From Geosiphon pyriformis uo1 (taxonomy: Eukaryota; Fungi; Glomeromycota): 64,000 bases of DNA. This document shows, piece after piece, positions 1 through 55,062 of this stretch. How positions within the stretch are numbered: the stretch's first letter is position 1; every line of letters starts with the position of its first letter. The stretch covers positions 62,001-126,000 of the forward strand of contig JAAOMT010000657.1 of NCBI GenBank assembly GCA_016748015.1, read 5' to 3'. The notes beneath the pieces were generated by a model that saw only the letters and a list, made by a program, of their open reading frames with translations, ran no database searches and had not been told where the DNA came from. Position numbers and translations under genes: made by a program.

Positions 1-2995
1 AAAAAAATAAGACAGCATCTTGTGTTTAGCTTGTAAAGATACTCTCTTAGATGAAGAGATGTGAAAAGACATTCTTGAAAGAGGAGGAGCATGTGACGAG
101 ACATGCCAATACACAATCCTGATTAACAACTGGGTACAAAAGGGAACACCCATCGACAATGCCTAGAAATAAGCATTAAGACGCCTGGAAAAATACCCAC
201 ACAATGAAGATGAAATCTGGAGAATGGCATATGCTATGTTAGAAGACGCCACAACAGAGGAGCTGAGAGAAATTAAAAACAATTCACTATCTCTACCTGA
301 GCCTGAATATGTCCAAACTTTCAATGCCTTTAGTGACATTGAAGACGATCCAGAGAAATTTCATGAGCACTACCAACAATTAGCATCCACAAAAAAGGAA
401 CAGAAGCAATGCTTAGAAGAGATAAACACCTGACTATGTGACCACTGTTTGATCTCATGTGACTTCCAGTATTGTGATAAGTGTAACCTCATCTACAATC
501 CACCACTACGCATGATCTACACGATCCCAGAAGAAAAAGAACCAATCAACAGCTGTGCATCAGAATCAGAATTGCTGATCAATCGTGCTTCAAACTCCGA
601 TGATGATGACAATAACAACAGTTCGAGCTCTGGTCAAGATGGCAATGACAATGACAACAGTATAAACTCAGATTCAAACTCTGATTCAGGCCCCGAACAA
701 TATATTACACTCCCTGACCTCACCAAAAACCAAGAACTTAAATGGTTTAGTGATAATAACGAAGGTATCATGTCAGAACGAGTGCATAATACTGATGCAG
801 AGTTTAATCTAAGGTATTCAGAAAAAGATGCCATCAAATTGGAACCACATTCACACATCTGCCTTGATTTGAAAATAGTGCTGGAAATTCCAGCAACAAC
901 AATGGTTCAATTAGCATCTAGAAATAGTTTAGTGAAAAGAGGGATTAATATAAGAGAAGGAATAATTGATGTGAGATATATAGGAAATATTATCGCTATG
1001 CTACAAAATGACTCAGAAAAGACCTATATAATAGAGTCCAACAAAAAGATAGCACAGGCAATATTCCTGTCTCTGGTTAGAGTAGCTCAGTTAGTATCAG
1101 TGGGAAAGAAGGAGGAATTAGGAATAACAGCGAAAAGAATACAGGGATTTGAATCAACAGGTAGAATAGATATGCCAGTCAATATGGCAGAAGAAAAAAT
1201 TGTTGGCCAAGGAGAAATTATCTCAACTGGTCAAGCAATTTCCATTCCATCATATGACCAGTACATGATAACAATAGAGAGGAAGGTAAAAGACCAAGCA
1301 CAAATTTTTGAAGCAGAAGCAAGTCTTTGTGAATCAGGAGAAGTTGGACTCATCAATCTCCACATACCAGTCAAGAACTATAACCACATCAAAATTTCCA
1401 TTTACAACAACACTGGAAATATTGTCAATATACTGGAAAGAACTATCATCAGATATTTGACCATAGAAATAGAGAATCAATCACTAAACACCATTCCAGA
1501 CTTTCCACAGCTTTGTGAATATGTCAATATCACATCACAAACAATATATGGACAAAGCAAATGTTATTTGTTCCAACCAGAACAGTTGGAACAAATGAAC
1601 ATAGGAAACTTAGATTCACTCCAACGTATGTAACTTAAGATGTTGCTCAATAATTTCAACGACATCTTTGCCAGTGAAAACAAATTTGGCCGAACTGACA
1701 TCATCCAGCATCAGATCAAGACTGGAGATACAATGCCAATTAAACAAAGAGCATACAGAGTACTACCAGCCAGCCATAAGATTATCCATCAAGAGATAAA
1801 CCGAATGCTTGACAATGGGCTAATTCAGCCATCAATAAGCTTATGGTCATCACCAGTGGTACTCGTCTGAAAAAAGAATGAGAAAATTCACTTTTGTGTA
1901 GATTATAGAAAACTCAATGGAGTAACTTGTAGAGATAGCTACCTCATGCCATGAATCCAAGAATTATTCAATGCTTTTGGTGGAAACAAATGGTTTTCAA
2001 CATTAGATCTGGACAGTGGTTATTGGCAAGTAGCCATGGATCCAGCCAACAAAGAGAAAACAGCATTCACCACAAGGAAAGAGAATTTCGAATTTGAAGT
2101 AATGCCATTTGGCTTAACCAATGTTCCAACAACTTTCCAACAGCTAATGGAAATCATTTATACTGGCTTATTGTGGAAATCAGTAGTTGTATACTTGGAC
2201 AACACCAATGTATTCTCAAAAACATTTGATGATAATCTTCATTATCTTCAACAAGTGTTCGAAAGATTAAGAAGAGCAGAACTAAAGTTAAATGCAACAA
2301 AGTGCTTCTTCAGCAAGACAAAACTAAAATTCTTGGAACACATAGTCAGCAAAAATGGCATCAAAATGGATCCAGAGAAAATAGAGATAGTAAAGAACTC
2401 TTAAGTGCTGGCCAATATGACAGAACTGAAATTATTCTTGGAATTCACCAGCTACTATCAGCATTTTATCAAGAACTTTTCTAAGATAGCACAGCCACTC
2501 AACCAACTGCAAACCAAGAATACAAAATATGAATGGACAGAAAGTTAACAAGAAGCTTTTAATATTCTGAAAAGAAAGCTTATTCAAGCTCCAGTACTGA
2601 TTTATTCAGATCACAGCAAATCATTCATTATCACTACTGATGCATCTGGCCAAGCATTAGGAGCAGTATTATCTCAGAGAGAACCAGATGGCAGGAAACA
2701 TCCAGTAGCATATGCTAACAGAGATTTAACACCAGCTGAAAAGAACTATAGAACACCAGAATAAGAATACTTAGCAATATACTGAGCAGTCATAAAATGG
2801 AAAAAATACTTGAGCCAGAAGTTTGAAGTATACACAGATCACAAAGGATTAACATCACTTCAAAAACAAGAATTTGGAGATGAAAGACAGTCAAAATGGA
2901 AAATGGCACTTGCACCATATAATTATACTATACATTATAAAAAAAGAAAAGACAACAGAAATGCTGACAGTTTGTCGCAAATGAGACAAATCTAA
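1..2995 (+). pseudogene. pol: GypA-1 pol (Cys-rich region, dUTPase, RT, RNase H), many stops; ends at conserved TAA after NADSLSQMRQI
   Basis: SPVVLV, DYRKLN, MPFGLTN, YLDN(T), TDAS, VYTDHK and NADSLS motifs across ORFs 449-2995. Confidence 0.92.
743..1162 (+). pseudogene. dUTPase domain within GypA-1 pol (degenerate)
   Basis: HNTDAEFNL (AGFDL), ASRNSL (RSS/G), GIIDVRYIGNI (GxIDxxYxG), KIAQ and RIQGFESTG (RGxxGFGSTG): the five trimeric dUTPase motifs in order. Confidence 0.88.
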
Positions 2996-3058
2996 AGAAC
3001 AGTTCAATCCAAAAATATAACAAAACCAGAACAATATCTACAAAAAACATAACAAAAG

Positions 3059-4440
3059 ATAAACATACAAAAATATCAACAACTGCAACATTATATAAAC
3101 ACTTAACAGTTCAAGGAGAATTTATCTCAAACAGAACAAAAGAGTATTAAACAACAATCAAAATATTTTATCACTAACCAAAATATACTGTATCAAAAAA
3201 ATAGAAGAGATCTAAAGCAACCAACTAGAGTAATTACAGAGCCAGAAAAAGAGACAATATTATTCAACATGTACTCAAATCCAACAGCAGGACACTTTCA
3301 CAAAGAAGCAACCATGGAAAGAACCAGAAAAAAATACTATTGGCCATTAATATATCCAGATATCATCCAATATGTTCAAAATTGTGATGCTTGTCAGTGA
3401 AAAGAAGGAACAAGACCCAGTAAACCATTAAGACCAATCAAAGTGGGACAACTATTCGACCGGATTGGAATTGATTTAGTCGGACCATTAACAATTACCA
3501 GCAGAGGAAACAGGTACATAACAATAGCCATAGACTATCTCACTAAATGGCCAGAGGTGAAAGCAATTCAAAAAGCAGATGCAAAATCTGTTGTCAAATT
3601 TGTTCATCAAGATTTAATTTGTCAACACAGATGTCCAAAGGAATTATTATCAGACTAAAGAACTCATTTTGTGAACAAAACATTAACAGAATTGAGCCAA
3701 AGATTCGGAATTAAGAGACCACTATCATCACCATACCATTCACAAACCAATAGATTAGTCGAAAAATTCAACAGAACATTGTGTGAAGCAATAGCTAAAC
3801 TCAGCCAAAAAAACCAAAATGATTGGGATTTGTTGATATTATCAATACTATTTGCTTATCAGACAATGAAGCAAGATACTACACAAGCAACATCATTTGA
3901 ATTAGTATATGGTAGAACAACAACACTACCAGTGGAAATAGAAGTCAACACATACCCAACTAAACCAATAACAGAAAAAAATTTCAAAAACACATTGTTG
4001 AGAAGAACATATGACTTAATGGAAACATTAGAAAACAAACGACGAAGAACAGCTGATAACATACAAAGATCACAAGAAAAACAAAAAGAAAGACATGATA
4101 ACCAACTACCAGATAAACCAGTTGAGTTCAGGATTGGAGACAAAGTACTACTACATCGTACCAAAGTGGAAAAACAATGGAGTGGAAAATTTGACTCCAA
4201 ATGGGATGGACCATTTCACATAGAAGAAATTCTAGGAAATAGAGCTTACAAATTAAGATTAATAACAAAATCTTGACCAAAGCAGCACATGGAGATCAAC
4301 TGAAACCCTACCACTATACAGCATCATCATCCACCAGTAATATTCCACAATTAAGAGTACAGAGAATACTAGTTCAATCAAATAAGATTTCATGAGATCT
4401 GAAACCAATCATTATCATTGACAACAACACATCCAATTGA
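3059..4440 (+). pseudogene. GypA-1 integrase as a separate ORF (start ATG decayed to ATA); HHCC, DDE and GPF modules
   Basis: GHF...CDAC, IGIDLVGP, LLSD, VEKFNRTL, WDGPF; ATG is intact in GypA-3 at 24403-24405. Confidence 0.88.
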
Positions 4441-4493
4441 TTGACAAAAGAATATATAAGAACATGGTCAATGCGACAGAAGAGATCAGAAAA

Positions 4494-5123
4494 ATGGAAA
4501 TTACAGACAATATCCATTCACTAATCCAACAAATTTTTCAATTAATCCAACACTAGGAGATGGAAATTACAATCAATCAACAAACCATTCATTACAAAAA
4601 TACAGCAAAGATACCACAAAACAAAGCACAAAAAAAACTTGAAAATGTTGTTGACAAGATCATGACCAAAATAAAATTGGCCATAAAAGAACAATAAATA
4701 GTCGGATTACACAAAGAACTTACCAGAGAAACTTGGACTTGGTGGACACAACAATTTCCAAAAAATTATTGTTACTTTTACTTGGGACAACATGTAAATA
4801 TCCAGAACTTATATACAGATAAAACAAAGTGGTTATTTGACACAACAATACTATAACAACTAGAACATTTTGTAAAGAAAAACAACTTATCTACACAAGC
4901 TTGAGCTATATACTAAATACACACAGCATTTCAGGATTGACCAGGAATCCTACTCAACAAAGCAATAAATACAGTTACCAATAATCAATTGAGAAAAATT
5001 ACCAATGCTCAATTTGAAAAATTACAGACTCAAATAACACAAGTAATTCTCGAAAACGAAATTCAGGAAATACTTCAAGAGGGAGAATTAAAAGAATTTG
5101 ATTTCAATGGAGCTCAATATTAA
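4494..5123 (+). pseudogene. GypA-1 ORF3, ~209 aa, unknown function
   Basis: Manual translation MEITDNIHSL...YFYLGQ...QFEKL...GAQY* stays in one frame; internal stops are explainable as C>T changes; homolog at 22341-22969 (-). Confidence 0.75.
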
Positions 5124-5133
5124 AAGGAGGGGA
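5122..5133 (+). promoter_or_regulatory. GypA polypurine tract
   Basis: AAAAGGAGGGGA ending 3 nt before the LTR start TGTTA. Confidence 0.85.
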
Positions 5134-5136
5134 TAA

Positions 5137-6034
5137 TGTTATTCATAGAATATAGGAAATATAGTATTATTAGTCAGTAGATATTAACCAATCAGATGTG
5201 GATGTAGTAAAATGTGGAATTCTAAGATTCTTCTCAAGAATTGCAGGATTCCAGGAATTACAAGATTCTCACACAAGAAATTGCAGGATTCCAGAATTCC
5301 AGGATTCCTCTCAAAGGAATTGCAGGATTCCAAGAATTCCAGAATTCCTGTCGTAAAGAATTGAGGAATTGAGGAATCTCAATTATGTATATATAGCAGT
5401 AGTGTTAGAAGTTGAAAAAGAGACATCTGAGTTTAGATTTAATCTAAGCAACCCTCTACATCACAAATATCAATAAATAACTATTTTTATACCTTAATTT
5501 ATCCTCCACTATCAACTTCATGTTGATAGTAACAAATACTTAAACATGCTGGAACAATAGCTCTTGATCACAGTTATTAATAGGATACTAATCAAAAATT
5601 GCCTTGGCTCATTTTTTTATTTTATTTCTGTTTTTTTTATTTCTTTTCTTTATTTTATTTTCTTTGTTGTTGTATACTAATTGATTAAAAAATTAAGTGC
5701 TGAGTTATTGACATCAAGGATAGCCTGGTAAAAGACTCAGAAATAAGGGTAAGATTTTTATATATTATTGGATAGCTTACCAGAAAGGCACGACTACCAG
5801 ACTAAATCCAGCCACCACAATAAGAAAGAAATTGGGAAAACTCTCAAAAGAATACATTTACTATTGATGCTATTAAATCTCTGTTCATTATATAAAGAAC
5901 TCAACCAAAACCTTCAGATCACATAAAACCTTCGGAATTACTACCACCCACATCAACAGAAATCAACATAGCTTTTGAGCACCAAGTTACAGGTTTGTTA
6001 TTTAATTCCACAGCAAAAATAATCACCTGTAACA
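5137..6034 (+). repeat. GypA-1 3' LTR
   Basis: TGTTA...GTAACA; TATA at 5388-5395, AATAAA at ~5472; homologous to 21481-22327 (-) and 16565-16821. Confidence 0.88.
5213..5380 (+). repeat. U3 tandem repeats of the GypA LTR (GAATTGCAGGATTCCAGGAATT-like units)
   Basis: About 4 degenerate 35-40 bp units; also present at 22090-22260 (-). Confidence 0.75.
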
Positions 6035-7148
6035 ACATTGATCATTGGTTGGGTTGAAGGCTCATCAATTTTTCTGCCAATTGCTTTAAAGAAGTGTTTG
6101 GTAATTACACTAACAGATGATCCACTGTCTAGGATCAAGTCAATGAATTAACCAGCCACTTGTGCTTTGTAAATTAGAGGAGTAACATTGCTGTTGTCAG
6201 CAAGTCCAGCTTGGCGAGAACATTTATTGGTCTTTGGTGTTTTTTTCTTGGTGATTAGAGATTTGTGGAGATCTTTTCTGAACTGTGGATGGGTTATTAA
6301 CTGGCCAAAGATAATGTGTGCTAAGGTTTCCATGAGATTTTTGACAACAGAATAAGGTTCAGATTTTTGTACTATTTCTGGTGGTTCTAGCTTTGGAGGA
6401 TTTTTAAAAACTTTAGCCTTTAGTGGTTCATTATTATCAGCAGTTGATATGAATGGTTTGTTTGGATCCAAAATGAAATCAACCTTGGTTTTTTTCTTTT
6501 TCCTTGTTGATTCTGTGGTGTTAATTGCTAGTTCATTCATGTCATGATCATTATCAGTTAAGTTAAAGGTGTAAAAGAGGTTTTTTTCTGGTTGGCTTGT
6601 ACTCTTATCCTTTAAAAGTGTGCCTACCAGTTTAAAGGCTGATAAACAGTGGCTTCAACTAGGGAATCCTCTCCAAAGAAATTGATATTGGTATGATTAA
6701 GTCTTTGATTGGGGGCGTTGTTGTTAATGGTTCTGTTGTTTTGGTTATCATTGTTTCTGGAAGCTAGAGGGGGTAAGGGAAGATTGTTGCAATCTCTTGA
6801 AAAATGTCCAGTTAATCCACAGTGATAGCACACAAGTGGGCCACAATTTTGTTGTCTTTGATAAAGTGGTTGCTGAGATTGATTGAAACATGGTTCAAAT
6901 CTGGGTCTTTGGAGTTGCTGGTTATCTCTGACTGCTTGGGCTAATGGTTCTAATAGCTGAGCAAGATTTGCTGTAAGTCTATCTATCAACTGTTCATTTG
7001 GGTCTTGAGTTTAGGCAGCAAAAGAAGTAGCAGCTATTTGAGGAGCAGAAGTCATAACAGGAACAGGAGCAAAAACTGAAAGTGTCCAAATACATTCTTT
7101 GGTTGTCTTCAATTCGTTGGACAAGTTCAATAGCCATGTCCATTGTAG
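6035..7148 (-). mobile_element. GypB-1 left part (gag C-terminus, frameshift site, start of protease)
   Basis: CYHCGLTGHFSRDC knuckle, VYQPLNW*, LILDSG; interrupted by GypB-2 (TSD GTAG) and GypA-1. Confidence 0.9.
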
Positions 7149-16564: not shown

Positions 16565-16821
16565 ATATATTAACAGACAGCTTACTAAAAGGACACAACT
16601 GCCAGATTAAACTGGTCACCACACTGAAAACAGAAATTGGGAAAACAACTTGAGGAAAACAATTTAAACCAATCATAGTAAATCTCTGTCCATTTTACAA
16701 AGAACTCTGCAACAAATCTTCAAATTCACCAAACCTTCAGATATCAACACCAGAATACCAAACCAGCACCAAATTATGGATTTGTTATTTGACTTGAAAC
16801 TCCAAATAATCATCTGTAAAA
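16565..16821 (+). repeat. GypA-2: 3' end of a GypA LTR, inserted in LINE-a ORF1
   Basis: Aligns with 5760-6034 (AGCTTAC..., GAAATTGGGAAAAC, AATCTCTGT, ACCTTCAGAT, TTTGTTATTT). Confidence 0.8.
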
Positions 16822-19800
16822 ATGCCATGTTTATGGAAACAAACTAAGAAAAAGGGTAGAAAACTGTTGTTTATGGGACCAAGAGACATGTGCTTTTTGT
16901 ACAAATATTGAATATACCAGAAAAAAACATGGGAAAAAAAGTAGGGTAGATTTACAATCTGTTGGGGGATGTCAGTTATCTCTTAGAGGCTGTAATGGTG
17001 GAAAACCAAAAAATTTGAATAAACTTCTTCCAAATTGCTAGAAGAGATCAAGCTAGAAAAATTCTGGCAAATATAGAAATTGAATCATTTTTGATGGCAA
17101 CTAATGGCATAGCCAATTAAATGGCTGGTCAAAAAAAGGTTCTGATTAGAAATATTTCCTTAGATATTTCTGACAGAGAAATTGGAGCTGCCATAAAAGA
17201 ATTTGAAGAGGTTAAAAAAGTCCAAATTAAAGTGGCTGGAAAATAACAATCAGCAATAGTTGAATTTAACAACCAAAAAAAGGCAACTAGAGCTGTGAAC
17301 TAATGGTTAACTCTAATCAAAAAAAATGCAGTTAGGATATACCCAATAATAAGAACCCAAAAGATTATTAAGTAAAGAAAAACTTGGAAAGCTAAGTTTA
17401 TTGGCCTACTACAGAACTGTACTGCCCATTATCTGAGTACTACTCTGAATTAAATCAAAATCCAATTTTGGTTTATTCTAAGAACTAGCAAAAACTACAC
17501 CAGAATGGGATGTGCTTACATAGGATTTAATAGTAAAGCCAGTTATTATAATATTACCAATAAGCCCTTGGTGATTGGAAACACATTGGTTTATTGGATG
17601 TCTACTAATACTAAAGAGTATTATTTTTGTTATTAAATAGGACACTTGGTCTTAAAATGTCTTACCTTACTTAAAAAAAAAAAGAAAAATACCAAGAAAA
17701 TTACCAACAACATATGATTGGCCAAGTTGTATGTCAAAAAAAATGTACTAAAAAAACCCATCAAGACTTTTGGAAGAAAATTATATACTGAAATGGCAGC
17801 ACTAAACCCAACTTATAATAAGAACAAAGCAAATTTAAGTGGATCTCAAAAAGCTGGTTCACAAGCAAACAACAAAGAAAACCAACCAAAAAAAAAAACA
17901 GACCAGCTATAGAAGACCGAAATTAATGAATTAAGACAACAGATTAATGAAATAACCAAATTATTGAATATTGTAACTGCCAAACTTGAAATAACTGTGA
18001 AAAAAAGAAAAAAAAAAGAAAACAAAATAGTGAACCAACTACCAAGTCATATACCAGAAAAAATAAAAAAAAGAAATAATAAAAAAGCAAACCAAGATAC
18101 TACTCCCAGACATAACTTACAAGAAGAAAAAGAGGCATACAATTCAGAGAAAAAAATCAATGAAATTAAAAAAACTCTGGAACTTATTATAATACTACTA
18201 AAACAAGTAAAAAAACAGAGTAATTGGAATAGTACTACAGCTAAAGAACCTAAATCTATGGAAACAGATAATATTTAGTATATCCAATCTTAATTTAAAA
18301 CAGAATATTTTCAATAATAATTCTTGGAAAATTGGAACTATTAATGTTAAAGAACTTAACAATTTTGGCAAAGCTAAAAAAACATTACAATGGATTAAAA
18401 AAGAAGAGTTTGACTTTGTAGTCATTACAGAAACTAAACTGATTTTACTCAAAGAAAAAGAAGTGTTTTTTGGCTCTGAAAAATATCATGCTTTCTGGGA
18501 GTCAAGCATTGAAAAACAAATGGGAACTGGGGTGGGTATACTGGTTAAAAAATGTTGGACTTACCATATAGAGATAATTAAGGTTTATTATGGAAGATTA
18601 TTACATCTAGTATTAAAATTTAGGAGTAAAATAAGTGTCTACATAGTTGGATTGTACATGTCTGCTTCAAAATTAACTACTAAAAAGGCAGTAACAAAAA
18701 AAATTAGGAAGCTTTTAGCAAACATTGTGTTAAACAATGAAATAGTTATAGTAACAAGTAATTTAAATGAAGATCTGACATCCAAATTACTTGAAAAAAC
18801 ATTTGCCACAAATAAAAGAAAAAAATGTTTCACTATGACAATGTTGTAACAAATAAATCTGGTAGATACACATAGAGTATATGCAGCAAACAATCCAAAT
18901 AATACATGAGCATCAAATAGAGTACAAAAAAGATTAGACTATATGTTTATTGATGTTGTTACAGCTTTACTGGTTATAAACATTGGAGTGATTAATGTCA
19001 AAGAGTTAATTAACACTGATCACAAAGCAGTAATAACAATTATTTGATCTGGCAAAATATTGGCAAACATTAAAAAATTTAGATCTGAGAGAAAAAAGAG
19101 TAGTACAACTATAATTGATGTTAAGAAAGCATTTAGAGTACAATGGAAAGCCTATACAAAAGAAACTGATCAATTAACAAATGAAGCACAAAGAAAATCA
19201 GTAGATAACAGCAATAATAATCTAAACCAGATGTGGCTTACAATCAAGAAAACTGTGTTACAAGCTGCTAATTGTCTACCAAAAAAAAAGTAAGAGCCTA
19301 ATCTGTATACACAAAGAAAAAATACATAGATTACAAGTTTGTTAAGATTGTTATTGATATAATTAAACAAATAAGAATAAACAATACAGATATGCATAAT
19401 AACAATGTTATACAGCTGTTGGCTAAATGAAAACAACTGAAACCTGAAGCAATAAATGCATATTTAATAACTCTCCCAAAAGATAAGCTTATTACAGAAT
19501 TACTCAACATCAAAAAAGAATACAGATCAACACTACACACTAGGATCAGGCTACAACAGCAAAGACAGATAATGAACAATATCATCAAAAGACAACAAAA
19601 CTTTGAACTAAACAAAGAAGCAATAATCAAAAACATTCTGAACAAAAAAAAACAAAAAATAATACTGGATTATGTTACTAAAGAAGACAAATTTCATGAT
19701 GATCTTGATAAAATCAAAAAACTAGTAAACAAAAAAGCTTAAGGTTAAACTAAAACAAAAATTCTTGAACCTAAACTATGGAAAAGTTGGAAATATAGGT

Positions 19801-19843
19801 TTAAGCTAATTGACAGCATTTCAGACTATGTCTTTGATGGTAT
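16822..19843 (+). mobile_element. LINE-a: non-LTR retrotransposon fragment (ORF1 with RRM and knuckle; ORF2 APE endonuclease), heavily decayed
   Basis: GTINV, ITETK, GTGVGILV, RLDYMF, TDHKAV APE motifs; ORF1 resembles LINE-c ORF1; 19035-19843 aligns with 26765-27570. Confidence 0.85.
18280..19843 (+). pseudogene. LINE-a ORF2 N-terminus (apurinic-like endonuclease)
   Basis: APE motifs in the frame of ORF 18463-18849. Confidence 0.82.
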
Positions 19844-21480: not shown

Positions 21481-24400
21481 TGTTATAGTTGAATTATTTG
21501 GAATTTTAAGTCAAATAACAAACCTGTAACTTGGTGTTCAAAAGCTATTTCCGTCAATAATATTCTGCAAATGTTGTATCTGAAGGTTTTGATGGAGTCT
21601 TTTGTATAATGGACAGAGATCCGATAGTGCGGCGATTTGTTGTTTGTTGTTAATTGTTTTCCAATTTCTTTCTCAGCTTGGTGGCTAGATTTATTCTAAC
21701 AGTCATGTTCTTCTGGTAAGCTAACTGATAATATATATAAATCTACCCTTATTTCTGGGTCTTTTACCAGGCTATCCGTGATGTCAATAACTCAGTGCTT
21801 TTAATCCTCAATCAATTAGTAGGCACAACAGAATTAAAGAAAGAAAGAAATAAAATAAAGAAAATAACAATGAAAATAAGCCAAGGCAATTATAGCTATA
21901 ATCAAGAGCTATTGTTCCAGCGTGGTTAAGTATCAATTACTATCAACATAAAGTGTTGATAGTAATGAGTGGATTGAGATATAAAATAATTATTTATTTG
22001 ATAATTGGGAATTGGAAGGTTGCTTAGATTAAATCTAAATTGAGAGGTTCATCTTTTCAGCTTCTAATCTTGCTGCTATATATACATAATTAAGATTCCT
22101 CAATTCCTTGATTCTTCACAACAGGAATCCTGAAATTCCTGGAATTCTGTGATTTCTTTGAGAAGAATCTTGGAATTCTGGAATCCTGCAATTCCTCATC
22201 AGGAAATTCTGAAATTCCTGGAATCCTGCAATTCCTGAGAGAAATCCTAAAATTCCACATTTACTATGCCTACTTCTGATTGGCTACTAATCATGTTAAT
22301 ATATTTCCTATATTTCTATAAGTAATATTATTTCCTCTTTTTAATATTGAGCTTTATTGAAATCCAACTCGTTTAATTCCTCCTCTTGAAGTATTTCCTG
22401 GATTTTGTTTTCGAGAATTACTTGTGTTATTTGGGTCTGTAATTCTTCAAATTGAGCATTGGTGATCTTTCCCAATTGATTACTGGTAACCATATCCATT
22501 GATTTGTTGAGTAATATTTCTGGTCTATTCTAAAATGCTGTGTGTATTCGGTATATGGCTCAGGCCTGTGTGAATAAGTTGTTCTTTTCCACAAAATGTT
22601 CTAATTGTTGTAGTATTCTTTTGTCGAATAATTGCTTTGTTTTATCCGTATATAGATTCTGGATATTTATATGTTGTCCCAAGTAAAAATAACAATAGTT
22701 TCTTGAAAATTGTTGTATCCATTAATTTCAAGTTTCTTTAGTCAACTCTTAATATAGTGTCTCTTTTGTCAACTCTCTTATTGTTAATTTTACTTTCGCA
22801 ATGATTTTGTCCACCGTATTTTCAGTTTCTTCTGTGTTCTGGGTTGCAATGTCTTTCTAGTATTTTGATATCGAATGGTTTGTTGATTGATTGTAATCTC
22901 CATTTTCTGGTGTTGGATCAATTGAAAAAGTTGTTGTACTAGTAAATGAATGTTGTCTGTAATTTCCATTTTCTGATATTTTCTGTCATGTCTACCGTGT
23001 CTTTATATATTTTTTTGCTGAATTAATTTAACATGTTGTTGTCGATAATAACTATTGGTTTCAGATCTCGTGGAATCTCATCTGGTTGGACTATTATTCT
23101 CTGTACTCCTAATTGTAAAATATTACTGGTAGATGGTAGTGTAATGTTGTGGTATGGTTTCAGTCAATCTCCATGTGCTGCTTTGGTTAAAATTTTGTTA
23201 TCCAGTCTTAATTTGTAAGCTCCATTTTCTAGAATTTCTTTTATGTGAAATGATCCATCCTATTTGGGATTGAATTTTCAACTCCATTGTTTTTCCACTT
23301 TGGTATGATGTAAGAGTACTTTGTCTCCAATCTTGAATTCAACTGGTTTGTCTAGTAGTTGACTATTATGTCTTTTTTTCTGTTTCTTTTGTGACTTTTG
23401 AATATTATCAGCTGCTCTTCTTCATTTGTTTTTCAATGTTTCCATTAATTCATATGTTCTTCTTAGCAATGTTTCTTGAAAATTCTCTTCTGTTATTGAT
23501 TCAGCTAGATATGTACTAATTTTTCTTTTTACTGGTAATGTTGCTGTTCTATCATATACTAATTTGAATGGTGTTGCTTGTGTAGTACCTTGCTTCATTG
23601 TTCGATAAGCAAATAATACTGATGGTATGAACAAATCCCATTTGTCCTGGTTTTTTTGGCTGAGTTTGGTAATTGCTTTACACAATGTTCTGTTGAATCT
23701 TTCGACTAATCTATTGGTTTGTGGATGGTATGGTAATGATAATGATCTCTTAATTCTGAATCTTTGGCTCAATTCTGTTAATGTTCTGTTCACAAAATGA
23801 GTTCTTTGGTCTGATAATAATTCCTTTGGACATCCGTGTCAACAAATTAAATCTTGATGAACAAATTTGGCAATGGATTTTGCATCTGCTCTTTGAATTG
23901 CTTTCACCTCTGGCCATTTAGTGAGATAGTCCATGGCTACTGCTATATATCTGTTTTCTCTGCTGGTAATTGTTAATGATCCAACTAAATCAATTCCAAT
24001 CCAGTCAAATGGTTGTCCCATTTTGATTGGTCTTAATGGTTCATTGGGTCTTGTTCCTCCTCTTTGCTGATAAGCATTACAATTTTGAACATATTGGATG
24101 ATGTCTGAATACATTGATGACCAATAGTATTTTTTTCTGGTTTTTTCTATGATTGTTTCTTTGTGAAAGTGTCTGGCTGTTGGATTTGAGTGCATGTTGA
24201 ATAATATTGTCTCTTTTTTTGGCTCTGTAATTACTCTGGTTGGCTGATCTAGATCCCTCCTATTTTTCTGATAAAGTATATTTTGGTAAGTGATAAAATA
24301 TTTTGATTGTTGTTTGATCCTCTTTCATTCCATTTGAGATAAATTCTCCTTAAACTGTTGAATGTTTATATAATATTAGAGTTGTTAATATTTTTGTATG

Positions 24401-26764: not shown

Positions 26765-28350
26765 GTAACAATCATCCAATCTGATAAAATCTTGGCAGGC
26801 ACTAAAAAAAAATCTAGATCTGGAAGAAAGAAGTGTAGCACAACTATGATTGATGTTAAAAAGACATCTGGAGTTCAATAGGAAATCTATGCTAGAGAAA
26901 CTGATCGACTAACAGATGAAACACAAAGAAAATCAATAGATAACAGCAATGATGATCTAAACCAGATGTGGCTTACAATCAAAGAGACTGTGTTACAAGT
27001 TGCTGAGTGTCTACCAAAAAGGAAAGTGGAAGCCCAATCTGCATACACAAAGAAAAAATGCATAGATCACAAGCTTGTTAAGATTGTTGCTGATATAATC
27101 AAACTAATAAGAGTAAACAATGCAGATATGCATGATAACAATGTTATGCAGTTGTTGGCCAAATAGAAACAGCTAAAACCTGAGGCAGTTAATACATATC
27201 TGATGACTCTCCCAAAAGATAAGCTAATTGTGGAATTACTCAATATTAAAAAAGAATACAGATCAACACTGCGAGCTAGGATCAGGCTACAACAGCAGAA
27301 ACAATATCATTAGGAGACAACAAAACTTTGATCTAAACAAAGGAGCTATGATCAAAAACATCCTGAACAGAAAAAAACAAAGAATTGTACTAGACCATGT
27401 AATTAAAGAAGGCAAATTTCATGATGATTCTGATGAAATTAAAAAGCTAGTAAACAAAAAAGCCCAAGGGTGAACCAGAACAAGAAACATTGAGCCTGAC
27501 CTATGGAAAAGTTGAAAACACAGATTTAAGCCAATTAAAAGCATTCCAGACTATGTCTTTGATGGTGTAATGAATGAATTAACAAATGAGGAATTTGAAC
27601 ACATATTGAGCCACACACTTCATAACAAAGCTTCTGGCCCATCAGACATTCAAGCTGAACTCTGGAGGAAGGCTGGGCCTAATACCAAATCTAAACTAAA
27701 AACATTGCTTAATGCTTGCATTAAAGCAGTAAACATGCCTGAGGAGTGAAGAGTAGCACAAGTTATACTGATTCCAAAGCCAAAAGAATGGGGTGACAAT
27801 ATTGACATTACCAGGCCAATCACACTTATTGAAAGCACCAGAAAAATCTTAACAAAGATTTTAACTGCTAGGATATCAAAAGCATGTGAACTCCACAATG
27901 TCCTAAAAGATTACAATACCTCTGTATTAAAGAATACCTCCACAGCAGTGCCTATTAAGGTGATTAATGCTGTAGCTGAACATGCAAGAGAATTTGATAA
28001 AGAAGCTTGGTTTACATTTCAGGACATGAAAAAGACATATAATTCAGTGAGATGGAAACCCATGGAAGCTGTACTAAAGAGAATTAAGATGAACAATAGG
28101 TTTACTGAGCTGTTTGGCTTGATGCACAACAATAGAAGCAACAGAATCATAACTGAATTTGGGTTAAGTGATAAATATCAAGTACAAAATGAACTGGATC
28201 AAGAGGAAACAAGCTTACCCATTATGTGGAGAATTTTCTACGACCCCTTACTGTGCAAAGTAAAACAAGCCAATTATAGTCAGGAATACAAACTGACAGC
28301 AGCATAAAAAAAGTGAGATAATCAATCAGATACACAATCTCTGTTGGTGT
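26765..28350 (+). mobile_element. LINE-b 5' part (post-endonuclease region and RT N-terminal half)
   Basis: KASGPSDI, RPITLIES, FQDMKKTYNSV, (Q)EETSLPIMWRIFYDPLL. Confidence 0.88.
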
Positions 28351-28499
28351 TGTTATGGTTGAAACTCATAGTTTTTATTAGTTATCACATGTATTAGCCA
28401 CTGATGTCATATTGTTATGGTTGAAACACATAGTTTTTATTAATTATCACATGTATTAGCCACTGATGTTATATAATTAGCCACCCTATTTTTAGATAA

Positions 28500-28620
28500 T
28501 GATCATTGACCTGATCAATAACCTGACCGTTGACCTGATTAATGACCTGATTATTGACCTGATCATTGACCTGATCATTGACCTGATCATTGACCTGATC
28601 ATTGATCTGGTCGTTGACCA
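28500..28620 (+). repeat. U3 12-bp tandem array (TGATCATTGACC)x10
   Basis: Direct count; 2-12 units in the other GypB LTRs. Confidence 0.9.
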
Positions 28621-29144
28621 CTTTAGATAGCTATATAAGCGATGATTCTCTTAGCTGTAGAAAGACATGATCAAAGTAACGAAATAAACAATATCAATTA
28701 CTTCCTCTCATAATTGCTTATTCCCCTTTTCTTACCTTCAAGTATCTACTTGTTGGTATTCACATACCTTATCTTTTCCCCTTCTTGATTTGTATTTGTT
28801 AGAATTAGCCTGAGAAGCAATTGGCTTGCTCTTGTAATTCATTGAATAAAGAAACGATTGAAAAGTACAACAATACCTGTTATTGATTTTAAGAATCGCC
28901 GAGTTGAAGCATAGAATAATAGCAGCAGTGTTATCTTGTTGACAATCATAGACTATTCCTCTACCTTCAGATTTAAGAAAAGATTAGCGACTGTGATTTT
29001 TATGAGATTGATCACACACATTGAATTCCTACTTATTCAATTTGCTCCCTTATTGTAATTTCTTCTTTGTTTATTTCCATCACCATACAATACTGTTCTC
29101 CCTTGCTATCCGTTAGCTTGTTACTCCAACCCGTAACATAAAAG

Positions 29145-29163
29145 TGGTGCTCCCTGTAAGGTT
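29145..29163 (+). promoter_or_regulatory. GypB-6 PBS
   Basis: TGGTGCTCCCTGTAAGGTT after LTR-TAAAAG. Confidence 0.85.
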
Positions 29164-30795: not shown

Positions 30796-33290
30796 ACATT
30801 TTTAACTTAACTGATGATGACCATAACATGGATGAATTAGCAATCAACCCCTCTGAATCCACAAGAAAGAAGAAGAAAGCCAAAGTTGATTTCATTCTAA
30901 ACCCCAATAAAGCTTCTACATCAACTGCTGACAACAATGAGCCCCCAAAAGCCAAAGTTTTCAAGAACCCTCCAAAGTTGGAACCCCCAGAAATAGTACA
31001 AAAATTTGGTCCCTATTCTGTTGTTAAAGACCTTATGGAAACCCCAGCACATATAACTTTTGACCAATTAATGACCCATCCACAATTCAGAAAAGATCTT
31101 TGCAAATCTCTGATTCCAAAGAAAAAGACACCCAAAACCAACAAACGCCCTCGCCAAGCTGGACTTGCTGACAATAGCAATGTCACTCCTCTAATTTGTA
31201 AAGCCCAAGTGGCTGGCTACTTCATCGATTTGATCCTAGACAGTGGATCATCTGTTAGTGTTATTGCTAAACACTTTCTTGAAGCAATTGGCAGAAAAAT
31301 TGATGAACCATCCACACGACCAATGACCAATGTGCATGGNNNNNNNNNNNNNNNNNNNNNNNNNNNNNNNNNNNNNNNNNNNNNNNNNNNNNNNNNNNNN
31401 NNNNTGCTTTAATGAAATTTTTGGGTAAATGACAATACCCGCTGGACTATAATCGACAGCAAAGAGAACATTTGCGCAAACAATTAAATTTCTATTTGAT
31501 TCACCAGAACCAGTTATATAAAAGAAATAGAAAAGATCCTGACTGCTCCCAGAGAGTCATTAGATTTGAAGAAAGAGAAATTGTGATCTACAATATGCAC
31601 ACTGATCCATTAGCTGGACACTTTGGAAAAACAAAAACAATTCAGAAAACTTTAGCTTGCTATTATTGGCCTACTTTGGAAAAAGACATTGCTGAATACA
31701 TCAAAACCTGTGATATCTGCCAAAGAAGAGGAAAACCCAATCGCAAGGAAGATATCCATCCAATCTCTGTTGGTCAACCATTTGATAGAATTGGTATAGA
31801 TGTTGTTGGACCTTTAACAGTAACTTCTGATGGCAACAGATACATTATNNNNNNNNNNNNNNNNNNNNTCACTGGTTGTAGAACAAAGAGAACTCTCTCC
31901 AGAAGAAAGAAAGATAGACATTGAAAACCTGCTGGCTAGAAATAGCCCAGTTATCTCAAAAGAAAGTGAACCTCCTGGACGTACACATGTAATACAACAC
32001 ACCATCATTACCAGAGAAACTCGCCCCATCTATTTGAAGCCCTATCAATCCAACCAGTGCAATGATGAGTTTATCAAAAAGGAAATAACCCGAATAAAAA
32101 ACCTTGGATTCATACAGGAAACCAAGAGTGAATGGGCATTCCCAGTTGTAGTGGTATCCAAGAAAGGAGGAACCCTATGCTTTTGTGTTGACTATTACCA
32201 ATTAAATGCCATTACTAAAAGAGACATGTACCCACTTTCCAAGATTGATGCAATGTTAGACTAATTCCATGGTGCTGCTTTCTTCTCAACCATTGACTTA
32301 ACTACTAGATTCTGGCAAGTAGAGATGGATCCAGAAAGCAGAAAGAAAACTGCCTTCATCACTAAGTATGGTACCTACGAATTCACAGTCATGCCTTTTG
32401 GTCTCACAAATGCTCCTCCCACCTTTCAATGCTTAATAGACAAAGTATTTGAATCAGTAAAAGAAAACTTTGTTCTAGTCTACTTGGACAACATAATGGT
32501 ATACTCAAAAACCTGGGATGAACACCTTGAACATTTGCAAAAGGTTTTTGACCTCTTTAGAAATGCTGGTCTCAAGATCAATCCAATCAAATCATTCTTT
32601 GGATGTCAATCCACCCAGTTCCTTGGCCATCTTATTACAAAAGATGGAATCTTTCCTGATCCAGCCAAAATTGAAAAAGTTCAAAACATTAGACAACCAA
32701 TGAATGTTTATGAACTATGCTCTTTTCTTGGTTTGGCCTCTTATTATCACAAGTTTGTCAAGGATTTCTCCAAAATTGCTGCTCCTCTCAATCAGCTACT
32801 TAGAAAAAACATCAATTATTACTGGGGCACTCATCAACAAAAAGCATTTGAAATTCTGAAGAAAAAACTGGTTACAGAACCCATCCTCATGCAACCTAAT
32901 TTGGATCAACTTTTTATCCTCCACACTAATGCATCTGGCTATGGACTTGGTGCTGTTCTTTCCCAAAAAGATGAAGATAACAGAGAACATGCCATAACAT
33001 ATGCCAGTAGAACTCTCACACCAGCAGAAAAAAACTACTCAGTCACTAAGCAAGAAAGTTTAGCAGTAGTTTGGGCTACCAGCTACTGGGACAAATATCT
33101 TAAGAGTGTGAAATTTTTGGTGATAACAGATCACCAAGCTTTGGTTTGGCTACACAACAAAAGAAACCTGGAACATAAATGGATAATTTGCTGGATACTC
33201 CACTTGGACGAATTCGACTATGACATTCAACACCACAAAAGAGTTAATCATCAAAACATTGACGCTTTCTCTAGACTTACCATCCAGTAA
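30738..33290 (+). pseudogene. pol: GypB-6 pol (PR-RT-RH; gaps and a misplaced INT segment)
   Basis: LILDSGSS; ORFs 31830-32264 and 32325-33290. Confidence 0.85.
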
Positions 33291-33355: not shown

Positions 33356-34530
33356 ATGGACTTGGACAACTACTCTGCTTTAATGAAATTTTTGGGTAAA
33401 TGACAATACCCGCTGGACTATAATCGACAGCAAAGAGAACATTTGCGCAAACAATTAAATTTCTATTTGATTCACCAGAACCAGTTATATAAAAGAAATA
33501 GAAAAGATCCTGACTGCTCCCAGAGAGTCATTAGATTTGAAGAAAGAGAAATTGTGATCTACAATATGCACACTGATCCATTAGCTGGACACTTTGGAAA
33601 AACAAAAACAATTCAGAAAACTTTAGCTTGCTATTATTGGCCTACTTTGGAAAAAGACATTGCNNNNNNNNNNNNNNNNNNNNNNNNNNNNNNNNNNNNN
33701 NNNNNNNNNNNNNNNNNNNNNNNNNNNNNNNNNNNNNNNNNNNNNNNNNNNNNNNNNNNNNNNNNNNNNNNNNNNATATTGTTTGTTGCCATGGCTGCCC
33801 CAAAGAACTTTTATCTGATAGAGGAAGAGCTTTTCTCAGTACACTGTTTAAAGAACTTTGCAGAAAAATGGAAATACGTCATAAACTCTCTTCCTCTTAT
33901 CACCCCCAAACAAATGGCCTAGTGGAACGTTTCAATAGAACACTATGTGAAACCCTAGCCAAAACCAGTAAAGAAACCAACCTATGAGACAAAGTATTGC
34001 CTTCAGCCTTGTTTGCTTACAGAACTGTGAATCATGACATAACAAGTTATGAACCCTTTTATCTGCTCTATGGACAAATGGCAACTCTACCAATAGAAAC
34101 AGATATAGAAACAATATCTTTTAAAGAAATAACAATAGGAGATTACAAGAACATTTTGCAAAGAAGACTTGGTAATATTCTTGACTCATTAGTAGAAGCA
34201 TGGATAATTGCCTTTGAAAAGATAAAACAGGTCCAAAAGAAGCTCAAAATCAAAAAAACCTATAAAACACTTTCCTTAAGTGTTGGTGACTTAGTTTTGG
34301 AATACCGTTCAGACAGAGACAATGTCTATAGTGATAAATTCTCTAGCCGGTGGAAAGGACTCTTTATAGTCAACAAAGTTTTGAACAATGGTTCTTATAT
34401 CTTACAAAATCAATATGGAACAATATTCAGTGATCGCCCTGTTCATGGCACGCGACTCAAGAAATATCACAAACGACCTGATTGGTTACTTGTTGTGGTA
34501 ATACCGACCCAAATGATCAGCAAAAATTAG
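33356..34530 (+). pseudogene. GypB-6 integrase (separate ORF starting MDLDNY)
   Basis: ATG at 33356 is in the frame of ORF 33443; HTDPLAGHFG, VERFNRTL, RWKG(P)F. Confidence 0.87.
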
Positions 34531-35234: not shown

Positions 35235-37143
35235 TTATCACATGTATTAGNNNNNNNNNNNNNNNNNNNNTCTTGTAATTCATTGAATAAAGAAACGATT
35301 GAAAAGTACAACGATACCTGTTATTGATTCAAAGAATCGCCAAGTTGAAGCATAGAATAATAGCAGCAGTGTTATCTTGTTGACAATCATAGACTATTCC
35401 TCTACCTTCAGATTTAAGAAAAGATTAGTAACTGTGATTTTTATGAGACTGATCATGCACATTGAATTCCTACTTATTCAATTTGCTCCCTTATTGTAAT
35501 TCCTTCTTTGTTTATTTCCATCACCATACAATACTGTTCTCCCTTGCTATCCGTTAGCTTGTTACTCCAACCCGTAACAATATAATTAGCCACCATATTT
35601 TTAAATAGCAATCATTGACCTAATCATTGACCACTTTTCATAGCTATATAAGCAATGAATCTCTTAGCTGTAGAAAAGCATGTAATAACAAGCATCTGAA
35701 TAATCAAGAATAAATAAAATAACAACTTACATCTCAATCCTTCTCTTATTGCTAATTTCCCTTTCCCTACCTTCAAGTATCTGAACATCTTAAAGATAAA
35801 AGATTACTTGTTGGCCTTTTCCTGACATATATAATTATAGCATTTGAAGATTATTTGAATAAATGTGACTGAAAAGCACAAGTTGATACCTGATATTGAA
35901 TTCTAAGAGCGCCAATATAAGGCATAGAATTATACTAGTGGTAATCAATTGTTGACAGTACGGACTATCCCTCTACCTTCAGATTCCTTTGTTACCTTTT
36001 GAAAAGAATAGCAACTGAGATATTTTATAAGACTGATCTCGCACATTAAATCCATACTCATTCAATTTGCTCATTGAAGTTGAATTCCCTTTGATTATTT
36101 CCATCACCCTACAATTCTGTTCTCCCTTGCTATCCATTAGCTTGTTATTCCAACCCATAACATAAAAGTGATGCTCCCTGTGAGGTTGTTAAAATCTACT
36201 TTGTTTTCTATTGTATGGGTGATTATTCATACTTGCCACAACAATCAGAAGAACACTTTAAAGCACACAACAAAAATGATCTAAACTTTATTGAACTCAA
36301 TTCTTTGCCCTCCTGCTTGATTTGCTTTCCCATTGAAAAACAATCCAGCAGACAATTCCAAAACTTTTGGAACTGGTTTCTGGACAAGCATTCAGCTGAA
36401 ACCTATACAGCTTATACAACCTATTGTTACGGGTTGGAGTAACAAACTAACAGATAGCAAGAGAGAACAGTATTGTATGGTAATGGAAATAAACAAAGAG
36501 AAAATTACAATAAGGGAGCAAATTGAATAAATAGGAATTCAATGTGCATGATCAGTCTCATAAAAATCACAGTTACTAATCTTTTCTTAAATCTGAAGGT
36601 AGAGGAATAGTCTATGATTGTCAACAAGATAACACTGCTGCTATTATTCTATGCTTCAACTTGGCGATTCTTTGAATCAATAACAGGTATCGTTGTACTT
36701 TTCAATCGTTTCTTTATTCAATGAATTACAAGAGCAAGCCAATTGCTTCTCAGGCTAATTCTAACAAATACAAATCAAGAAGGGGAAAAGATAAGATATG
36801 TGAATGCCAACAAGTAGATACTTGAAGGTAAGGAAAGAGGAATAAGCGATTATAAGAGGAAGTAATTGATATTGTTTATTTCATTACTTTGATCATGTTA
36901 TTCTACAGTTAAGAGAATCATCGCTTATATAGCTATCTAAAGTGGTCAACGACCAGGTCAATAATCAGGTCAATGATTAGGTCAATGATCAGGTCAACGA
37001 TCAGTTCATTGATCAGGTCAATAATCAGGTCAATAATCAGATTAATGATCAGGTCAATGGTCAGGTCATTGATCAGGTCAATAATCACTATCTAAAAATA
37101 GAGTGGCTAATTATATGACATCAGTGGCTAATACATGTGATAA

Positions 37144-43429: not shown

Positions 43430-45007
43430 ACAATGAGGGAATAAGTAAATTTTGACAACCTCACAGGGAGCACCACTTTTATGTTACGGGTTGGAATAAC
43501 AAGCTAACGGATAGCAAGGGAGAACAGTATTGTATGGTGATGGAAATAAACAAAGAGGGAATTACAATAAGGGAGCAAATTGAATAAGTAGGAATTCAAT
43601 GTGTGTGTTCAGTCTCATAAAAATCACAGTCGCTAATCTTTTTTTAAATCTGAAGGTAGAGGAATAGTCCGTGATTGTCAACAAGATAACACCACTGCTA
43701 TTATTCTATGCCTCAACTTGGCAATTCTTAGAATCAATAACAGGTATCATTGTGCTTTTCAATCATTTTTTTATTCAATGAATTACAAGAGCAAGCCAAT
43801 TGCTTCTCAGGCTAATTCTAACAAATACAAATCAAGAAGGGGAAAAGATAAGGTATGTAAATGCCAACAAGTAGATACTTGAAGGTAAGGAAAGGGGAAT
43901 AAGCAATTATGAGAGAAAGTAATTGATATTGTTTATTTCGTTACTTTGATCATGTCATTCTACAGCTAAGGGAATCATCACTTATATAGCTATCTAAAGT
44001 GGTCAATGACCAGGTCAATGATCAGGTCAATGATCACTATCTAAAAATAGGGTGGCTAATTATATGACATCAGTGGCTAATACATGTGATAACTAATAAA
44101 AACTATGGGTTTCAACCATAACACTATTACTTTGACCAAGCTTATTTTGAAGACGACTTTGAAGAAAGAAACAACAGTATTAATCAGCTCTTATATTCTG
44201 CAACCTTTGAACAACAGCCCACTGATTTCAAATATTTGAATCATCAAATCCACATTTGGATTGCTGCCCATCAAGCAACTGAAACTCCATTTGAAACAGA
44301 AGAAGAAAGCTACCAAACTGTTCCTGTTTTTGATCTTTTATCAAGTGAATCAGACTTATCTACACAAACAGTTACCCCTGAACCAATGGCTAATGACTTC
44401 ATGCAAGCAAACATTCTGGCCGCCCTCCAAGGTATACAAACTGCTCTAAGAAGAAGAAACAATACTCCACTACCACTATTTAGATGTGATGCACAAGATC
44501 CAATTGAATGGTTGGATGATTTTGAGAGAACTGCCACAGCCAATCAGTATGATGAAGAATACAAGTTCCAAATTATTGGTGGCTACCTCCAAGGCTCTCC
44601 TGCTACAAGAAACAGATGCCAATGCTCAACACAGAATAATCAAATAGATACCAACCAATGCTGAAGAAAATACCTCTTTTACTACCTGGTTTGAGGCCAA
44701 GTTCAGAACTCCAATATTAATATCCAAATGGCGCATGGAATTGGAAAAAAGAACCCAAGGCCCTGGAGAAGTAGAGACTGAATATGCCAAAGCTATTAGA
44801 AAGCTAATCAAACGTGTAGACTCTGGGAAAAACTGGACAGAACAAAAGATCCATTCCTTCACAAAAGAATTAAGAACAGATCTATCATATGCTCTTTGGC
44901 CTCTCTTGGCTTTAAAAGACAACCCAATAATGGATATAGCTATTGAACTGGCACAAAGAATTGAAGATAACCAAAGGATGCATTTGGGATCCACACTTCT
45001 AGTTTTT

Positions 45008-45079: not shown

Positions 45080-45851
45080 GCTGCTGCCTCTTTTGCTGCC
45101 CAAACTCAAGATCCAAATGAACAATTAATTGATAGACTCACAGCCAATCTTGCCTGGTTATTAGAACCTTTGGCACAAGCAGTTAGAGATAACCAACAAC
45201 CACAAAGACCCAGATATAAACCACGTTTTAATCAGCCCCAGCAATCTCCTTACCAAAGACAGCAAAATCGTGGTCTTCCTGTATGTTATAGATGTGGATT
45301 AACTGGACATTTCTCAAGAGATTGCAACAATCCTCCTTTACCTCCTCCAGTCTCCAGAAATAATGACAATCAAAACAATAGACCCATCAACAATAATGCT
45401 CCCAATCAAAGACCCAACCATGCCAACATCAATTTCTTTGGAGAGAATCCCCTAGTTGAAGCCACAGTTTACCAGCCTTTAAACTGGTAGGCGCACCTCC
45501 AAAAGGTGAGAGTGNNNNNNNNNNNNNNNNNNNNTTAGAACCTTTGGCACAAGCAGTTAGAGATAACCAACAACCACAAAGACCCAGATATAAACCACGT
45601 TTTAATCAGCCCCAGCAATCTCCTTACCAAAGACAGCAAAATCGTGGTCTTCCTGTATGTTATAGATGTGGATTAACTGGACATTTCTCAAGAGATTGCA
45701 ACAATCCTCCTTTACCTCCTCCAGTCTCCAGAAATAATGACAATCAAAACAATAGACCCATCAACAATAATGCTCCCAATCAAAGACCCAACCATGCCAA
45801 CATCAATTTCTTTGGAGAGAATCCCCTAGTTGAAGCCACAGTTTACCAGCC

Positions 45852-53944: not shown

Positions 53945-55062
53945 TGTGAGAATATAGCTGCTGTTATACTTTCTAACAAATATTTATCCATTTTACTACC
54001 AATTTTTTCTCTTCTGGTAGTAGTTTTCTTTGGTTTAATAACAATATGGGTTCCATTGTTATCAGTTATGGTGGTCTGTTTTTCAATGGTCAGAGTAGTA
54101 TTTGAATAGTTTTTAATTCAATACTCATGGAGAGTATAGAAAACATTTTGAATGTTTTGATCCAGAAAAATATTGTTCATGTCAATTGAAAATACCTTTG
54201 TTTTGGAAATGGTACATTTATTTATACTATATTTTTGCTGATTATTTGAACCAATCAGGTCGTTTATGATATTTTTTGAGTCATGTACTATGAACAAGAT
54301 GATTATTAAAGATGGTTCCAGATTGATCTTGAAGAATATATGAACCATTGTTCAAAACTTTGTTAGCTAAAAAGTGTCCTTTTCACCAGCTAGAGAATTT
54401 ATTACCATAGACATTGTCTCTATCTAAATAGTATTCCAATACCAAGTCACCAATACTTAAAGAAAATATTTTATAGGTTTTCTTTTTTTTATCATTTCAA
54501 AAACAATTATTTGTGCTTCTACTAATGAGTCAAGAATGATACCAAGTCTTCTTTACAAATGTTTTTATAATTTCCTATTGTGATTTCTTCAAAGAGTATT
54601 GTTTCAATATCAGTTTCTATTGGTAGTGTTGCCATGCATTCATAAAGCAGATAAAAAGATTCATAACTTGTTATGTTATGATTCACAGTTCTATAAGCAA
54701 ACAAAGCTGAAGGCAGTACTTTGTCTCATAAGTTTGTTTCTTTACTGGTTTTGGCTAAGGTTTTACATAGTGTTCTATTGAAATGTTTTACTAGGCTATT
54801 TATTTGGGGATGGTAAGGGGAGGAAAGTTTATAATGTATTCCCATTTTTCTGTAAAGTTCTTCAACCAGTGTACTGAGAAAAGCTTTTTCTCTATCAGAT
54901 AAAAGTTTTTTGGGGCAGCCATAATGGCAGATGATATCTTTATAAATAAAATTGGCTATTGAGACTGCTATTTGGTCTGAAGTGGCTCTTGCTTTTACCA
55001 ACTTTGTAAGATAGTCAGTAGCTGTGATAATGTATCTGTTGTCATCAGAAGTTATTGTTAAA
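53945..55062 (-). mobile_element. GypB-8 old internal fragment (INT and ORF3), target of LINE-b and LINE-c
   Basis: ORFs 54726-55001, 54522-54704 and 54118-54348 match GypB INT and ORF3. Confidence 0.85.

Follow-up and report, generated by a model that had tools for sequence, protein, structure and literature searches.

Two families of Ty3/gypsy retrotransposons in Geosiphon pyriformis, GypA and GypB, conserve in what is likely the U5 of their long terminal repeats (LTRs) one and the same 10-mer, ACCTTCAGAT, which, judging from its complementarity, probably serves as a second annealing site for elongator tRNA-Met, the likely primer of both families. As this box is the exact complement of a part of that tRNA, it would provide a likely second grip on it besides the primer-binding site (PBS). 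For HIV-1, debate continues on whether primer contacts beyond the PBS matter, and the systems at hand are few; in Geosiphon, the LTRs of two families cannot be aligned and yet share one word complementary to the primer, retained in thousands of copies that have mutated naturally. This allows a comparative test, under which the word is expected to change with the primer across families. The observation points, furthermore, to natural priming by elongator tRNA-Met in a fungal gypsy lineage.

The window, the whole 64-kb stretch of DNA that was analysed, is a nest of decayed Ty3/gypsy elements of the two families and of LINEs. GypA is recognized as a Ty3/gypsy LTR retrotransposon by reverse transcriptase (RT), RNase H, the integrase zinc finger and SH3 domains in the elements with LTR copies A1 and A3 (Pfam), by gag and protease in gene models linked to GypA, and by LTRs bounded by TG..CA and a purine tract; its RT is 48% identical to that of GypB over 148 amino acids. 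A decayed GypA internal region (1..5136, plus strand) encodes dUTPase, RT and the C-terminal SH3 of integrase, with the dUTPase domain upstream of RT (434-1633), and runs via a purine tract (~5123-5136) into the 3' LTR copy A1 (5137..6034, plus strand), which is 898 nt long with TG..CA ends. Copy A3, likewise a 3' LTR (21482..22328, minus strand), is 75.5% identical to A1, and copy A2 consists of the final 253 nt only (16567..16819, plus strand) and sits within a LINE ORF1. As A2 runs in frame into this ORF1, its identity as a LINE 5' UTR captured by GypA was examined and is ruled out: contig depth falls from ~348,000 to ~1,600 at the A2 end (16819-16825; 794 contigs placed), 57 contigs depart there, beginning with CA, eight contigs of the flanking LINE have a different upstream sequence and ORF1 homologues reach far N-terminal of the A2/LINE junction. 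All 27 of these homologues are Geosiphon pyriformis gene models, one of which, P0028, equals the translation of the window letter for letter as compared by eye, which identifies the window as DNA of this species.

Pieces of at least two LINE families (RRM-containing ORF1, endonuclease, RT) are interrupted by LTR insertions at 16818-19841, 26766-28412, 51216-53940 and 55060-57266, and U3 tandem arrays are present in both gypsy families (GypA, 5216-5349, with a unit of 39-40 nt; GypB, ~28500-28610, with a short unit). Five N gaps (31340-31404, 31849-31868, 33664-33775, 35251-35270 and 45515-45534) are in some cases adjoined by 100% identical duplications of 288 and 354 nt; these are likely assembly artefacts, so that some GypB copies are possibly counted twice. 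No tRNA gene was found within the 64-kb window, and one GypB LTR examined gave no Rfam match at the gathering score. LTR expansion and gene models rich in transposable elements have been described for the Geosiphonaceae, the accessible part of that work being without PBS data (PMC11952901).

In GypA, the box is located exactly where the preliminary description had placed it, at 5910..5919 in A1 (plus strand), 16733..16742 in A2 (plus strand) and 21578..21587 in A3 (minus strand), all three being exact matches, and its first base lies 125, 87 and 106 nt before the respective LTR end, within the stated range of 80-125 nt. A degenerate second copy with two mismatches follows in A1 (5928..5937, plus strand), and in A2 the exact copy is the second of a tandem pair, the first of which (16716-16725) carries two mismatches, such that the exact box is the first tandem copy in A1 and the second in A2. 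The surrounding region is variable between GypA copies, as had been noted: A1 and A3 are 58-72% identical per 50 nt there, the most divergent part of the LTR. Identity of these two copies alone is unremarkable, since A1 and A3 share 22 perfect runs of at least 10 nt (150 of 889 windows); the run with the box falls, nevertheless, in the most divergent part, and the longest word common to A1, A2 and A3, 12 nt, contains it. With respect to transcription, A1 displays a TATA-like word near 5391 and AATAAA near 5472, and the box is found on the sense strand downstream of such words, as read in the DNA, in both families, so that the RNA would likely carry it near its 5' end, within a long U5.

The LTRs of GypA and GypB do not align, in agreement with the preliminary description, as the scores of local alignments (24-29) stay below the shuffle maxima (31-35). 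Nonetheless, ACCTTCAGAT occurs exactly 12 times in the window, in the three GypA LTRs and in nine of the 12 GypB LTRs, the remaining three GypB copies having the box with one mismatch; all 15 LTR copies with a match bear it on the transcribed strand. In GypB, it starts 176-188 nt before the LTR end.

The box is the exact complement of nucleotides 38-47 of elongator tRNA-Met, both in the viral locus L007, which is of eukaryote type, and in the human set. The longest complement of L007 in each of the three GypA LTRs is always to nucleotides 38-47, and the complements in the GypB LTRs are to nucleotides 37-47 (box 1; 28963..28973, plus strand, in an example copy) and 27-38 (box 2; 29000..29011, plus strand, with one mismatch in the same copy). 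Box 2 is absent from GypA, whose three LTRs each contain, apart from the 10-mer, no complement of at least 8 nt to the test tRNA. Between the two GypB boxes lie 28-40 nt, and a 12-nt indel that starts directly after box 1 distinguishes two subfamilies in this spacer. On the tRNA, the boxes adjoin at position 37/38 (28963-29011 and other GypB LTRs), presumably the usual intron position, next to base 37, which we take to be a modified base. Of 5000 dinucleotide shuffles of L007, 2 produced a complementary word that GypA and GypB have in common.

Complementarity was scored on surrogates, human elongator tRNA-Met and viral L007, in place of Geosiphon's own tRNA. As L007 had been selected with the motif, the human tRNAs, as far as given in PMC8216282, serve as an independent check. 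A control panel of tRNAs that consisted of Met genes alone, likewise selected with the motif, was disregarded as circular. Compared by eye, the box matches human elongator tRNA-Met in 10 of 10 positions, initiator tRNA-Met in 6 of 10 and tRNA-Lys(CTT) in 8 of 10, and the GypB PBS matches the same tRNAs in 15, 7 and 11 of 18 positions, respectively (PMC8216282). Viral loci with a 14-nt complement of the PBS comprise 17 tRNA 3' ends among 75, every one of them with the anticodon CAT; these 17 tRNAs (L012, L014, L023 and 14 others) have a different anticodon arm. In the contig collections scanned, neither the Geosiphon tRNA itself nor any other tRNA that combines the PBS-matching end with the box target was found.

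The GypA PBS, which lies outside the window, had been predicted to match elongator tRNA-Met as well. The 18-nt GypB PBS (43458..43475, minus strand) provides the reference; a second copy (29145..29162, plus strand) bears one G>A change and is located 6 nt after the 5' LTR end, this spacer (29139-29144) comparing with 2 nt inferred for GypA. The gene models consulted belong to a gag family tied to GypA by P0032, the start of which lies in the same U5 frame and which shows 72% identity over 373 amino acids to the dUTPase ORF of A1. In P0121, residues 12-15 correspond to the four codons at the very end of LTR A1, residue 16 is compatible with a spacer of 2 nt, and the GypB PBS, translated in frame, is identical to residues 17-21 (four of five residues against the copy with the mutated PBS). 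P0089 agrees with P0121 for the residues retained, and P0156, otherwise alike, skips the stretch of LTR end and PBS. According to this indirect reading, based on 2 of 125 gene models, both of which start downstream of the box, the GypA arrangement consists of the LTR end, a 2-nt spacer and the same PBS as in GypB. The prediction is thus borne out, fully by P0121 and partly by P0089, and neither of the two informative models among the 125 shows a PBS for another tRNA.

P0121 and P0089 run unspliced through the GypA 5' LTR end; most gene models beginning in U5 pass directly from there to gag. This recurrent splice joins a GT close to the 5' LTR terminus (6029-6034 in A1) to the gag start and removes the PBS (P0031-P0033, P0156 and many others); it is either a habit of the gene predictor or a real PBS-less mRNA. 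Further GypA LTR ends or LTR-PBS junctions were not encountered in the metagenome, viral and genome contigs scanned, nor did any of the 7 sequences examined among 150 matches of a profile-free search of representatives contain an unspliced run into the PBS. The contig rows listed include no loose end at 6034, and the 57 loose ends at 16819 show no PBS and agree after CA at only 0.45.

Conservation of the box extends across the GypA family, in contigs as well as in gene models, contrary to the poor conservation genome-wide that would have spoken against the preliminary description. At 80% likeness, 6155 contigs of run X1, which is possibly the window's own source, were placed on 5420-6100; runs X2 and X3 contribute next to nothing, and contig depth is not to be equated with copy number. 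Over the last two bins up to 5925 the summed depth amounts to 580,000 and 223,000; it drops to 453 in the next bin and is back at 499,000 at 5972-5994. The sharp edge of contig likeness coincides with the final base of the box, 5919, directly after which 55 contigs have loose ends, and among the joints listed 5919 or 5921 is connected to 5968-5984 with differing inserts of 12-26 nt. A hypervariable spacer (5920..5967, plus strand) thus starts one base past the box, with a depth of 453 against 223,000-580,000 alongside. In contigs matching A2, two positions of the box show C>T in 15% and 8% of the depth (40 of 51 variant rows).

About 45 of the 125 gene models listed for the GypA gag family include the U5 region of the box. 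A box-compatible copy is present in ~33 of these 45 and variants only in ~12, and ~30 have two or three tandem copies; the counts were made by eye on translations, in which synonymous changes are invisible. As the gene models, compared by eye, contain the word in each of the three reading frames, coding constraint on the box is ruled out.

In the mechanism we propose, the 3' 18 nt of the tRNA would anneal to the PBS, and the acceptor and T stems would open as a result. A loop of 90-190 nt in the U5 RNA would then bring the box back to the tRNA, where it would pair with the variable loop and the 3' strand of the anticodon stem as far as position 37. In GypB, box 2 would cover what remains of the anticodon arm; GypA, which is without box 2, often carries the box repeatedly. 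The likely effect would be on primer choice, primer loading or the start of minus-strand synthesis. Nearer to the LTR end, an anti-PBS word (5977..5984, plus strand), the 8 nt of which could pair with the initial 8 nt of the PBS by complementarity and which is part of the most conserved block of U5, could close a U5-PBS hairpin and would keep the PBS closed until the primer binds. A weak, PAS-like stretch of 7 nt (5897..5903, plus strand) is predicted to pair with the 5' strand of the T arm of the test tRNA after a 6-nt bulge; it is present in A1 and A2, not in A3. For GypA, predicted duplexes with the tRNA reach -20 to -23 kcal/mol, values attained by 2, 3 and 20 of 200 shuffles. Local folds predict that most of the box is open in A1, but that it is largely paired in the other two copies, and folding therefore gives no clear support.

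Three other explanations have to be weighed against a second annealing site. That a conserved stretch of one family shares ten letters with the other by mere chance is highly improbable, even though sharing on its own is weak support: the box is the only 10-mer common to the 162 words shared by A1 and A3 and the 213 words conserved in GypB, but any shared 10-mer is expected with P = 0.067 when two GypA copies are considered, A1 and A3 have their 22 perfect runs and two AT-rich 10-mers are also common to both families on the opposite strand. The value falls to P = 0.003 with all three copies, shuffling the final 300 nt of A1 5000 times yields the exact word once, and coincidence would account neither for the finding of the predicted PBS nor for the identity of the word with the complement of the primer, on which the support largely depends. 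Of the earlier argument that a 10-mer in two families independently supports function, the sharing has stood and has gained the match to the primer. 'Independently' has not, since the families also have the PBS and the terminal pentamers in common and the word may go back to an ancestor of both; function, for its part, is read from sequence only. It is also unlikely that the box is another functional motif, such as a site for a host transcription or RNA-binding factor, a Gag site or a packaging signal, with a coincidental match to the tRNA. The two or three tandem copies in most gene models with the region would suit a protein-binding array, and both families live in one host where they could use the same factor; however, the word matches the same tRNA as the PBS does, which the shuffled tRNA reproduced so rarely (2/5000), GypB has a second, adjoining tRNA complement and the orientation is that of the transcript in all 15 matching LTR copies.

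A historical origin without present pairing, finally, is unlikely as the full explanation. RT would have read past primer position 58 up to the modified base 37, and the copy would have recombined into an ancestral U5, or twice, to persist by descent and slippage. Several features fit such a primer-capture relic: the GypA word ends exactly at nucleotide 38, the GypB boxes adjoin at 37/38, a T-arm complement lies just upstream of the box in A1 and A2, as a decayed longer copy would show, and over-extension of the plus strand in HIV-1 is known to halt at base 37, according to the accessible text of PMC13191261. A neutral relic should, on the other hand, decay like its neighbours, yet the likeness ends at the last base of the box in 55 contigs with the next 48 nt hypervariable, and the word survives in LTRs that share nothing else. 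Origin by primer capture is, in any case, compatible with a second annealing site at present.

Beyond the role of the box as a probable second annealing site, a wider and doubtful extrapolation would be that a Glomeromycotina gypsy lineage primes on elongator tRNA-Met and unwinds its anticodon arm by boxes far upstream in U5, GypB the whole arm via two boxes, GypA with tandem copies in place of the second box, an array on which two or more tRNAs could be loaded or held per RNA, and that no LTR sequence other than the box has been retained since the two families diverged. No description of such a box in Geosiphon or its relatives was found in the literature searched, which was largely without subscription papers, Geosiphon genome papers and supplements. 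Extra primer contacts as such are already known from HIV-1, Ty1/Ty3 and fly gypsy, and a fungal U5 box for the anticodon stem and variable loop would be a new variation.

In HIV-1, a 9-nt motif in U3 pairs with nucleotides 38-46 of tRNA-Lys3 and has been proposed to act in strand transfer; the Geosiphon box addresses nearly the same tRNA segment, from a likely U5 rather than from U3. As in HIV-1 (MAL model, PAS), the Geosiphon elements would combine a full 18-nt PBS with upstream U5 words that pair with the primer, and the U5 contacts outside the PBS described in the available part of the MAL work include the variable loop and part of the anticodon stem (PMC13191261). HIV-1 forced to use tRNA-Met is also reported to keep a PBS for it stably once U5 matches the anticodon of that tRNA (PMC1797187, accessible text). 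In one NMR complex of HIV-1 the anticodon stem stays intact (PMC5066621, accessible text), and in MLV tRNA modifications block extra contacts (PMC13191261). Unlike HIV-1, the Geosiphon elements are fungal Ty3/gypsy, would use elongator tRNA-Met naturally, have the box 90-190 nt from the PBS and carry tandem copies.

Drosophila gypsy is likewise a Ty3/gypsy element with a second site, of 10-11 nt, complementary to the anticodon/T-stem side of its own primer; this site is located near the 3' end of the RNA, the 5' PBS has 11 nt, the primer is tRNA-Lys2, and the second site binds the tRNA but is dispensable for cDNA synthesis, as far as the accessible text describes (PMC1635307). In Geosiphon, by contrast, the PBS has 18 nt, and within the LTR the box follows both the TATA-like word and AATAAA. 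A 5'-3' bipartite PBS of the Ty3/fly-gypsy type is ruled out, with the PBS of full 18-nt length and the box ~440 nt past AATAAA in A1. With Ty1 and Ty3 the Geosiphon elements would have in common that several separate segments pair with one methionine tRNA primer; the available parts of these studies describe initiator tRNA-Met, contacted at the T and D arms by segments 3' of the PBS (Ty1) or in U3 (Ty3) (PMC5371799; PMC4974528), in contrast to the elongator type, contacted at the anticodon arm and variable loop from upstream in U5, in Geosiphon. Cumulatively, the arrangement of the box would resemble a U5 contact of the HIV type and not the 5'-3' bipartite PBS of the Ty3 type.
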